A stretch of 6,465 nt of DNA. It comes from a virus. Its lineage: Duplodnaviria > Heunggongvirae > Uroviricota > Caudoviricetes. The notes below the pieces were generated by a model. The model did not search any database, was not told where the DNA came from, and worked only from the letters and a program-made list of their open reading frames with translations. Location: the IMG/VR virus record IMGVR_UViG_2693429557_000012; one strand, given 5' to 3'. Of the stretch, positions 4,002 to 4,256 are shown piece after piece; the stretch's first letter is position 1, and every line of letters begins with the position of its first letter. Made by a program: the position numbers and the translations under genes.

Positions 4002-4076
4002 GCGGGCATCGTATAATGGCTATTACCTCAGCCTTCCAAGCTGATGATGCGGGTTCGATTCCCGCTGCCCGCTCCA
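4002..4076 (+). tRNA. glyT: tRNA-Gly (anticodon UCC, glyT-like, reads GGA)
   Basis: GCGGGCATCGTATAATGGCTATTACCTCAGCCTTCCAAGCTGATGATGCGGGTTCGATTCCCGCTGCCCGCTCCA matches my recollection of E. coli glyT; anticodon loop CTTCCAA. Confidence 0.85.
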
Positions 4077-4256
4077 GTCAGAGTCTTTCAGTCTGCGATG
4101 ATGGGAAATCCCGGAGTGACTGAAAGACGTTTAAGTTATGAATGATCGCCTTTTTTTGCAAAATTGCTGTGCAGAAATACTAACCTTCGGGCGTGCGATC
4201 ATTCATAAGCACTCTGCTTTTATTCCGATTAACTGTGGGTGGTTTGTTGGATAGAG

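Follow-up and report, generated by a model that had tools for sequence, protein, structure and literature searches.

The abrupt end of homology behind tRNA-Gly in this stretch of phage DNA is most probably the conserved 3′ edge of a tRNA cassette in a mosaic late region, where both of the sequences that follow the tRNA are native alleles and no attachment site is involved. A probability of about 0.8 was assigned to this core reading, and the question of whether the tandem arrangement seen here is real or chimeric is excluded from that value. The cassette comprises the genes for Ile2/Met(CAT), Arg(TCT), Thr(TGT) and Gly(TCC) tRNAs plus one G, and is situated between the gene for the antiterminator Q and the holin gene. 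Since its tRNA genes are near-invariant and their surroundings are mosaic, the cassette appears as an island of identity among otherwise different prophages, and comparisons break sharply at the tRNA edges on both sides. The tandem arrangement itself is a one-off IS600-associated rearrangement or an assembly error, and it is not the product of integration at a tRNA site.

Organization of the window and its 909-bp repeat

The window, i.e., the whole stretch of 6,465 nucleotides that was analyzed, is the late-regulatory region of a lambdoid prophage (Table 1). Homology to E. coli prophages begins at position 36, and the IS end at 1–35 is one that we take to be IS2-like. The backbone of window 1–3665 is referred to as P2, the prophage type with IS600 inserted in flank1 (L153) as P1, and the type with the flank2 alleles of the window as the third type; flank1 and flank2 are the spacers behind the first and second tRNA arrays, respectively, and related loci are cited by L numbers. 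A small ORF was found between the helicase and RusA genes. The exact ORF6N protein was present in 3937 blocks of the assembly collection. The spacers within the tRNA array are 1, 2 and 3 nt long, and the tRNA with the CAT anticodon was named tRNA-Ile by the RefSeq annotation of homologous arrays.

Table 1. Features located in the 6,465-nt window.
Feature	Position	Strand	Basis or remark
IS-element terminal 35 nt	1–35		Window start falls inside the IS; the 409-aa IS3-family transposase gene of L006 ends at the match to window 24
Replicative DNA helicase (DnaB-like), prophage backbone P2	140–1531	+	Annotated in L001–L003; called in L006 at 7128–8519
RusA-family Holliday junction resolvase	1785–2156	+	PF05866 on the matching gene, L005–L014
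Late antiterminator Q	2146–2532	+	phrog_79, E = 2e-51; PF06530 on the matching gene, L005–L014
Regulatory RNA cluster upstream of the antirepressor	2560–2975	+	Rfam matches above gathering score
c4-a1b1 targets	2560–2612		RF03163
isrK	2573–2649		RF01394
C4 antisense RNA	2675–2758		RF01695
sRNA-Xcc1	2892–2975		RF02221
Intact ORF6N-domain antirepressor gene	3013–3576	+	PF10543, E = 9e-21; phrog_2379 anti-repressor, E = 4e-85
Repeat copy 1: 3′ 408 bp of ORF6N, terminator, leader, four tRNA genes	3169–4077	+
Terminator	3652–3673		Between ORF6N and the tRNA array
Shared block: leader, tRNA array and G, 412 bp	3666–4077	+	100% matches confined there in L016, L046, L153, L154, L034, L120, L143 and others
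tRNA array copy 1: Met/Ile2(CAT), Arg(TCT), Thr(TGT), Gly(TCC)	3766–4076	+	ARAGORN, Rfam tRNA
Flank1, hairpin-rich	4078–4258	+	Most frequent tRNA-Gly-to-holin spacer, its initial 181 nt behind the +1 G
IS600 fragment with the C-terminal part of the orfB transposase	4259–4815	-	rve, rve_3 and rve_2 domains
Joint between IS600 interior and ORF6N interior	4815–4817		1 nt microhomology (C); direct comparison of three sequences
Repeat copy 2: 5′-truncated ORF6N, terminator, leader, four tRNA genes	4817–5725	+
Flank2 spacer	5726–6405	+	Without a family-matched ORF
Class II holin gene start	6406–6465	+	ATG at 6406

Comparison of the window with itself at an offset of 1648 revealed a single unbroken run of identity, in which 3169–4077 equals 4817–5725 over 909 bp (100%) and the left edge of which falls inside the ORF6N gene. 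The tRNA-Gly(TCC) genes were located by ARAGORN at 4002–4076 and 5650–5724, and the repeat ends one base (G) past the encoded CCA, with 4077 as the last common base and 4078 as the first divergent one. No significant local similarity was found between flank1 (4078–4258) and flank2 (5726–6405), the observed score being reached by 9 of 300 shuffles; when the full 292-nt flank1 was compared with flank2, this was the case for 30 of 300. The statement of the preliminary description that the two copies stay identical to the tRNA-Gly 3′ terminus plus one base and then diverge completely is therefore accurate. The distances given there are likewise correct: behind copy 1 there are 181 bp of strongly structured DNA (RNA fold z = -4.1 for these 181 bp in the window), and behind copy 2 approximately 612 bp without a family-matched ORF, a terminator-like hairpin (6338–6364) and the holin gene. 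The IS that had been placed after copy 1 is indeed present from position 4259, but it is only a 557-bp piece of the 1264-bp IS600 and is fused inside ORF6N.

The tRNA cassette and the spacers behind it

Both spacers were found behind the array in prophages with a single copy. The array continues into flank1 in E. coli VL40 (L001), E. coli FDAARGOS_943 (L002), Shigella flexneri SFBU1023 (L149) and the IMG/VR contig L153; flank1 of the window is 97–100% identical to these loci, in which the spacer runs on to the class II holin at +292. Continuity from the array through flank2 to the holin was found in E. coli CFSAN029787 (L003), in a second VL40 prophage (L004) and in L005–L014, which are ten complete or megabase-scale assemblies carrying the exact ORF6N protein. 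Flank2 of the window is 99.3–99.9% identical to L003–L014, L120 and L070, and it differs from the complete genomes by three alleles (5904, 5907 and 6013). The homology of flank2-type loci to copy 1 ends at 4077, and that of flank1-type loci to copy 2 ends at 5725. A long hairpin (5839–5927) was found in flank2, as well as a further terminator-like site at 5983–6002 in addition to the one close to the holin. The flank2 ORFs 5769–5984 and 5905–6198 had no Pfam or PHROG match, and an Rfam search of both flanks gave nothing significant.

The length of each spacer type proved to be nearly fixed. Flank1 was always 290–294 nt from the class II holin and flank2 678–681 nt, and the holins of the two types of prophages differ only in the first five codons, with homology between the types resuming at 6414 (holin codon 3–5). 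The fixed spacer lengths, together with the likeness of the holins after codon 5, indicate that the swapped unit extends from +2 after tRNA-Gly to the first holin codons. As natural alleles of the tRNA-Gly-to-holin spacer, flank1 (292 nt in its intact form) and flank2 (approximately 680 nt) are the two that occur most often.

All ten assemblies of the L005–L014 group are 100% identical to window 1–4077, contain a single copy of the array and pass straight into flank2; L006, for example, equals the window minus 1648 bp. Since L006 passes from the sequence of window 1–4077 into flank2 and the junctions are native elsewhere, both tRNA-Gly/flank junctions are older than the tandem arrangement. The preliminary description had allowed that the break might be only the edge of a duplication if, in related prophages, homology ran smoothly past tRNA-Gly into both flanks. 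Such smooth continuation does occur, for each flank separately and in the single-copy prophages listed above (flank1: L001, L002, L149 and L153; flank2: L003–L014), and what it reveals is that the break is the end of sequence common to different, presumably co-resident prophage types. The event behind the duplication did not give rise to it.

In order to survey related arrays, exact-pattern scans for the phage-specific Thr–Gly junction were used, and at least 120 IMG/VR loci and 7 loci from species-representative genomes were obtained. Including the loci already collected, 152 arrays were available in all, the IMG/VR share being taken from among the matches listed. Downstream families were defined by single-linkage clustering of the first 150 nt in the 145 arrays that had a complete tRNA-Gly gene and no less than 150 nt of sequence behind it. 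Among the matches listed, these 145 arrays fell into 10 unrelated downstream families, namely a flank1-like family (83 arrays), a flank2-like family (42 arrays) and eight small ones. All 10 begin at +1 or +2, and 9 of the 10 at exactly the same nucleotide, again among the matches listed. The extra G at +1 is not a matter of chance, as it occurs in 142 of the 145 related arrays among the matches listed.

Upstream of the array, homology to the window stops at varied positions, with clusters at 3743–3751, 3764–3766 (the 5′ end of the first tRNA) and 3918–3923 (the 5′ end of tRNA-Thr). The composition of the array also varies tRNA by tRNA, the arrangements CAT-Arg-Thr-Gly, CAT-Lys(TTT)-Thr-Gly and Thr-Gly alone being represented by 55, 49 and 17 arrays, respectively, among the matches listed. 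Cross-tabulation of upstream type against downstream family revealed several combinations, and a prophage of E. coli MEI7BO1-21 has the same helicase-RusA-Q-ORF6N backbone with no tRNA array. Several array-bearing prophages can reside in one genome: three were found on the chromosome of Shigella flexneri SFBU1023, and two array-bearing contigs (L113 and L066) come from one IMG genome. The view that the array is a conserved anchor with exchanged neighbors is thus a fair description, given the 10 families starting at +1/+2 and the re-assorted modules, but the tRNA 3′ end is not special in this respect, since breaks occur equally at tRNA 5′ ends. A full-text literature search gave no usable description of the array or its boundaries.

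The tRNA-Gly gene is identical to K-12 glyT at 75 of 75 positions, and tRNA-Thr is 2 nt off thrU. Homology to the host ends at the mature tRNA ends; the host glyT lies in the thrU-tyrU-glyT-thrT-tufB operon, the flanks of which differ from those of the phage array.

The position of the joint deserves a separate remark. A start at the same nucleotide in 9 of the 10 families, with a conserved +1 G (among the matches listed), is a closer agreement than one would expect from illegitimate joints made at random and then trimmed by selection. There is a small chance that a more specific process acts at the tRNA 3′ end, with which the fixed joint would be compatible. The mature 5′ edges, the CCA+G 3′ edge in 9 of 10 contexts, the confinement of host homology to the mature tRNA and the spacers of 1–3 nt together point toward the capture or movement of tRNA genes as units trimmed exactly to the processed RNA, although this was considered improbable. 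If it were true, it would mean RNA-mediated (reverse-transcribed) insertion or another process recognizing tRNA structure, and not random illegitimate recombination followed by selection. The constancy of the joint in spite of unrelated flanks, with CCA+G in 142 of the 145 arrays among the matches listed, is the one point that may be worth a wider survey.

Origin of the break and of the tandem arrangement

The preliminary description treated the tRNA 3′ end as a classic integration joint. According to this explanation, the tRNA-Gly 3′ end would serve as an att site, at which an integrase would have delivered either flank1 together with the IS or flank2 as cargo, with restoration of the tRNA 3′ end. 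The exactness of the break at CCA+1 and the start nucleotide shared by 9 of 10 downstream families among the matches listed are in line with it, and islands integrated at tRNA genes show a sharp attL edge. Nevertheless, there is no integrase in the window or adjoining the array in related loci, where the genes after the array encode holin, lysozyme and Rz-like proteins; integrases are located at the prophage ends, e.g., adjoining yecE in L001, and behind the two tRNA-Gly genes nothing resembles a recombinase except the piece of the IS600 transposase. No direct repeat of the tRNA 3′ segment marks the far end of the insert: no partial copy of the tRNA-Gly 3′ end (23-mer/25-mer, up to 3–4 mismatches) was found in the window beyond the tRNA genes themselves, and there was none 3–9.5 kb downstream in 9 related loci beyond tRNA genes. 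The downstream search that had been proposed with the integration idea therefore gave no integrase in the window or adjoining the array of related loci, and no att-like core repeat in the window or over 3–9.5 kb in these 9 loci. In addition, the tRNA is phage-borne, between Q and the holin, and is not a resident chromosomal target; the variable spacer amounts to no more than 292–680 nt of non-coding sequence that ends at the holin start; and homology breaks equally at tRNA 5′ ends (3764–3766 and 3918–3923). The integration joint consequently had to be given up as a description of this site, and integrase-mediated delivery was judged very improbable. Scarcely more credit was given to a simple tandem duplication, in which the break would be the mere edge of a head-to-tail unit and meaningless outside the window. 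The A-B-A layout, the 1648-bp period and the microhomology at the joint do resemble a RecA-independent tandem duplication, but duplication of A+B predicts flank1 after copy 2, and the unrelated flank2 was found there, i.e., the two copies are not followed by the same sequence. The segments come from different prophage types, both tRNA-Gly/flank junctions pre-exist in many single-copy prophages, and a second exchange replacing flank1 by flank2 would be needed to rescue this explanation.

The second copy is preceded by a novel joint. The extra 1648 bp carries flank1 and the first 557 bp of IS600: the fragment corresponds to IS600 positions 1–557 of 1264 when numbering starts at the inverted repeat on the side of the transposase 3′ end, with 99.8–100% identity to IS600, and the right-end inverted repeat starts at 4259. 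In L153, the upstream region is different and is followed by the leader, the array and flank1, with a complete IS600 after flank1 position 182 and then the rest of flank1 and the holin; a short (3–4 bp) overlap of flank1 across this insertion is as expected for target duplication. Several genomes have IS600 at the very same flank1 position. Window 3666–4815 is 100% identical to L153, and other IS600 copies have 1–4 mismatches. At the joint, IS600 reads ...GAACGTC/TGG and ORF6N reads ...AAAC/ATTTTTTCC, and the window reads ...GAACGTCATTTTTCC; the T-run is shorter by one T than that of copy 1. The left end of the fragment, at 4259, is a normal insertion end with the terminal inverted repeat, and the right joint is internal, at IS600 position 557, without inverted-repeat-like sequence. 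Since this joint is located inside IS600 and not at the IS end, transposase action cannot account for it, which leaves either illegitimate joining or an artefact.

The joint was absent from 5,426 complete E. coli genomes (megablast with window 4600–5050 gave no spanning match), and the exact 30-mer across it was not found in the genome, viral and metagenome contig collections. For the ORFs spanning or abutting the joint (171 aa, and 124 aa with L or M first), there was no exact protein on record; a 91-aa internal ORF matched only draft contigs with IS600 at a different ORF6N position, 3254. The truncated-IS600 joins of L016 and L046 were considered as possible recurrent biology and were rejected, since the single N at each joint marks a scaffold join. 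It was established that the tandem arrangement is confined to this sequence and that P1 is the donor of flank1 and IS600. The 412-bp block 3666–4077 is 100% identical in P1, P2 and the third type, which makes it a possible substrate for homologous exchange. As markers for the origin of copy 2, the alleles 5904, 5907 and 6013 point to the third prophage type, though only tentatively, as they are mixed in draft assemblies. The window thus consists, in this order, of the P2 backbone up to and including the shared 412-bp block, flank1 and the first 557 bp of the P1 IS600, the illegitimate joint, the 3′ part of the P2 ORF6N gene, a second copy of the block, and flank2. The switch from P2 to P1 would have been a homologous exchange within the 412 bp, and the joint into ORF6N would have been formed by microhomology-mediated illegitimate recombination or template switching. 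A real origin of this kind is plausible, and it might have involved replication of the break-induced or template-switch type, illegitimate recombination facilitated by homology, or deletion between two prophages in direct orientation.

Whether the tandem arrangement is a real recombinant or an assembly artefact was placed at roughly even odds. For an assembly chimera, in which separate array-flank1::IS600 and ORF6N-array-flank2 prophages were mis-joined via the 412-bp block and an IS600 contig end, the estimate was slightly less than one half; this explanation competes only with a real rearrangement and is compatible with the core reading. It is favored by the uniqueness of the joint among the 5,426 complete E. 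coli genomes and three large collections, by the single copy in the complete genomes with an identical left part, and by the homopolymer at the joint, the length of which is changed by 1 nt. The draft contigs L074 and L113, which match the left part of the window at 100% identity, end inside IS600 at 111 and 529, near the 557 of the window, and the window itself starts within an IS end and breaks off in a holin gene common to several prophages; this combination suggests a short-read contig pattern and speaks against a real tandem arrangement. Similar truncated-IS joins occur in other draft records, where they are marked by single-N gaps (L016 and L046), flank2 carries alleles typical of the third prophage type, and in one draft genome (IMG 2529293265) the partners are swapped relative to complete genomes. 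On the other hand, there is no N at the joint of the window, and a perfect 909-bp repeat is normally collapsed and not duplicated by an assembler. IS600 at 557 and ORF6N at 3167 share no k-mer that a graph assembler could mis-traverse, and therefore some real DNA molecule must carry the joint.

If the tandem arrangement is real, the dosage of the four tRNAs would be doubled and an extra 1.65 kb would lie between Q and the lysis genes, all of it presumably read by Q-modified polymerase, judging from the organization of lambdoid late operons. In Shigella and enteroinvasive E. coli, identical tRNA blocks among prophages are real substrates for recombination as well as a source of chimeras. Duplicated tRNA arrays in these bacteria need a long-read check before any of them is taken to mean added dosage or a new element.

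Comparison with known systems

The significance of the feature beyond careful annotation is small, as it is of an ordinary, known kind. For annotators, the practical point is that a place where homology ends abruptly at the 3′ end of a prophage tRNA gene is not to be taken for an att site unless an integrase and a duplicated core accompany it. At tRNA-gene att sites, such as those of P4-like elements and other tyrosine integrases, homology likewise ends sharply at the tRNA 3′ end. Unlike at those sites, there is no integrase and no duplicated 3′ core here, the tRNA is a phage gene internal to an operon, and the supposed cargo is 0.3–0.7 kb of non-coding DNA.

The IS-linked decay of prophages in Shigella and enteroinvasive E. 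coli, which involves IS600, IS2 and IS1, is comparable in the IS600 site of flank1 and in the presence of several array-bearing prophages per chromosome. IS2-like and IS600 copies surround the prophage in L005–L014. The novel joint differs from the usual IS-associated rearrangement in that it is located inside IS600 and not at the IS end.

A closer parallel is offered by the tRNA genes of Stx and other lambdoid phages, which occupy the same place downstream of Q and upstream of the holin in the late transcription unit. The slot between Q and the lysis genes of Stx phages holds ileZ-argN-argO and stx; according to Plunkett and colleagues (1999), phages of the 933W type reportedly carry ileZ-argN-argO in the interval from Q to the lysis or toxin genes. 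In the window, the two leading tRNAs of the array are 82–85% identical to the annotated ileZ and argN of the phages Lahn2, Min27 and Stx2a_WGPS2, and they decode the rare codons AUA and AGA, as in the Stx-phage arrays. However, the array of the window ends with Thr(TGT) and Gly(TCC) copies of the host thrU and glyT and not with argO, and it is followed by short non-coding spacers and not by stx genes.

The general pattern is that of lambdoid mosaicism, for which the model of Hendrix, Juhala and Casjens is said to describe sharp transitions at gene borders. The array is located between Q (2146–2532) and the holin (6406). Alternative unrelated sequences with sharp transitions at gene borders were found in this slot, as indicated by the 10 downstream families, the dissimilarity of flank1 and flank2 and the existence of a backbone without an array, and the neighboring modules were found to be re-assorted. 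The feature thus belongs with the mosaic modules already known from the late region of lambdoid prophages. As in lambdoid mosaicism generally, unrelated sequences occupy the same slot, the transitions coincide with tRNA 5′ and 3′ ends and with the holin start, and the types are re-assorted. The present case departs from the usual mosaicism in the greater exactness of the border (9 of 10 families, with the +1 G, among the matches listed) and in that what is conserved is an RNA gene with the same sequence as a host gene.

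Limits and variants of the prophage tRNA array

The tRNA-Thr and tRNA-Gly genes of the window (3923-4076) were compared with the corresponding host locus of K-12 (NC_000913.3, 4175388-4175747). Host glyT was found to be identical to the prophage tRNA-Gly gene, and host thrU differs from the prophage tRNA-Thr gene at two nucleotides. The prophage contains neither the host tyrU gene that intervenes nor any host flank, and the mature tRNA ends are the exact limits of the similarity between prophage and host. The base directly following the tRNA-Gly CCA was G in 142 of the 145 related arrays and was common to nine of the ten otherwise unrelated downstream families (both counts among the matches listed). 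In host glyT the next base is A.

The tRNA in slot 2 of the array has a single scaffold, and its anticodon differs between prophages. Among the matches listed, the anticodon was TCT (Arg) in 55 arrays, TTT ('Lys') in 49 arrays, with about 87% identity to the gene of the window, and TTA in one array, where ARAGORN labeled it as a stop-codon reader; an irregular anticodon loop was present in three arrays. These tRNAs have the appearance of homologues whose anticodon has shifted, and a suppressor may be among them.

Structure and alleles of the two spacers

Flank1 and flank2 are the two alternative spacers between tRNA-Gly and the holin gene. The fold predicted for flank1, whose hairpins lie within window 4083-4209, had a minimum free energy of -61.4 kcal/mol (z = -4.1). 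Among the matches listed, flank1 was kept at 97-100% identity in about 80 prophages, always with the holin gene 292 nt downstream. A search of flank1 against Rfam gave no match; the structure could be a processing element, a termination element or a small RNA.

In flank2, three positions (5904, 5907 and 6013) distinguish the window from complete genomes, and two of them lie in the right arm of the inverted repeat. The flank2 alleles were seen in all four combinations in draft assemblies, which suggests that short-read assemblies mix two flank2-bearing prophages.

Positions of the features considered in the window
Feature	Position	Details
Promoter-like site	2537-2566	immediately 3' of Q
Slot 2, second tRNA of the array	3844-3920	also in L026, L052, L109 and other related loci
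Base 3' of tRNA-Gly CCA	4077 and 5725	
Two long near-perfect hairpins in flank1	~4083-4128 and ~4136-4208	
Inverted repeat in flank2	5839-5927	31-nt arms, 84% complementary

Contig ends, scaffold joins and insertions

The window starts with 35 nt inside an IS end (1-35) and stops 60 nt into the holin gene (6406-6465), which is near-identical in several prophages. Both ends are typical break points of short-read contigs, which bears on a possible assembly origin of the internal duplication.

At single-N joins in two public draft records (L016 at 2378 and 5440; L046 at 3687 and 4113), tRNA-Gly, ORF6N or flank2 directly abuts a truncated piece of IS600 or IS911. These joins were rejected as rearrangements, since the single N marks them as scaffold artefacts that mimic rearrangements, and such artefacts could mislead surveys of this region.

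In one array, that of the IMG/VR contig L117, tRNA-Gly has an IS911-like end (TGAAGTGGCACAC...) inserted into its T-arm. Decaying prophages thus do acquire and retain insertions in the tRNA itself.

Regulatory RNAs downstream of Q

Several RNAs were matched by Rfam above the gathering score on the 3' side of the promoter-like site, namely c4-a1b1 targets, isrK, C4 antisense RNA and sRNA-Xcc1. Within 2537-3576, the promoter-like site is followed by these RNAs and then by the ORF6N antirepressor gene. This arrangement resembles the P1 immI-like or Gifsy isrK-antQ-like module, that is, an antisense-controlled antirepressor, here located in the late region.
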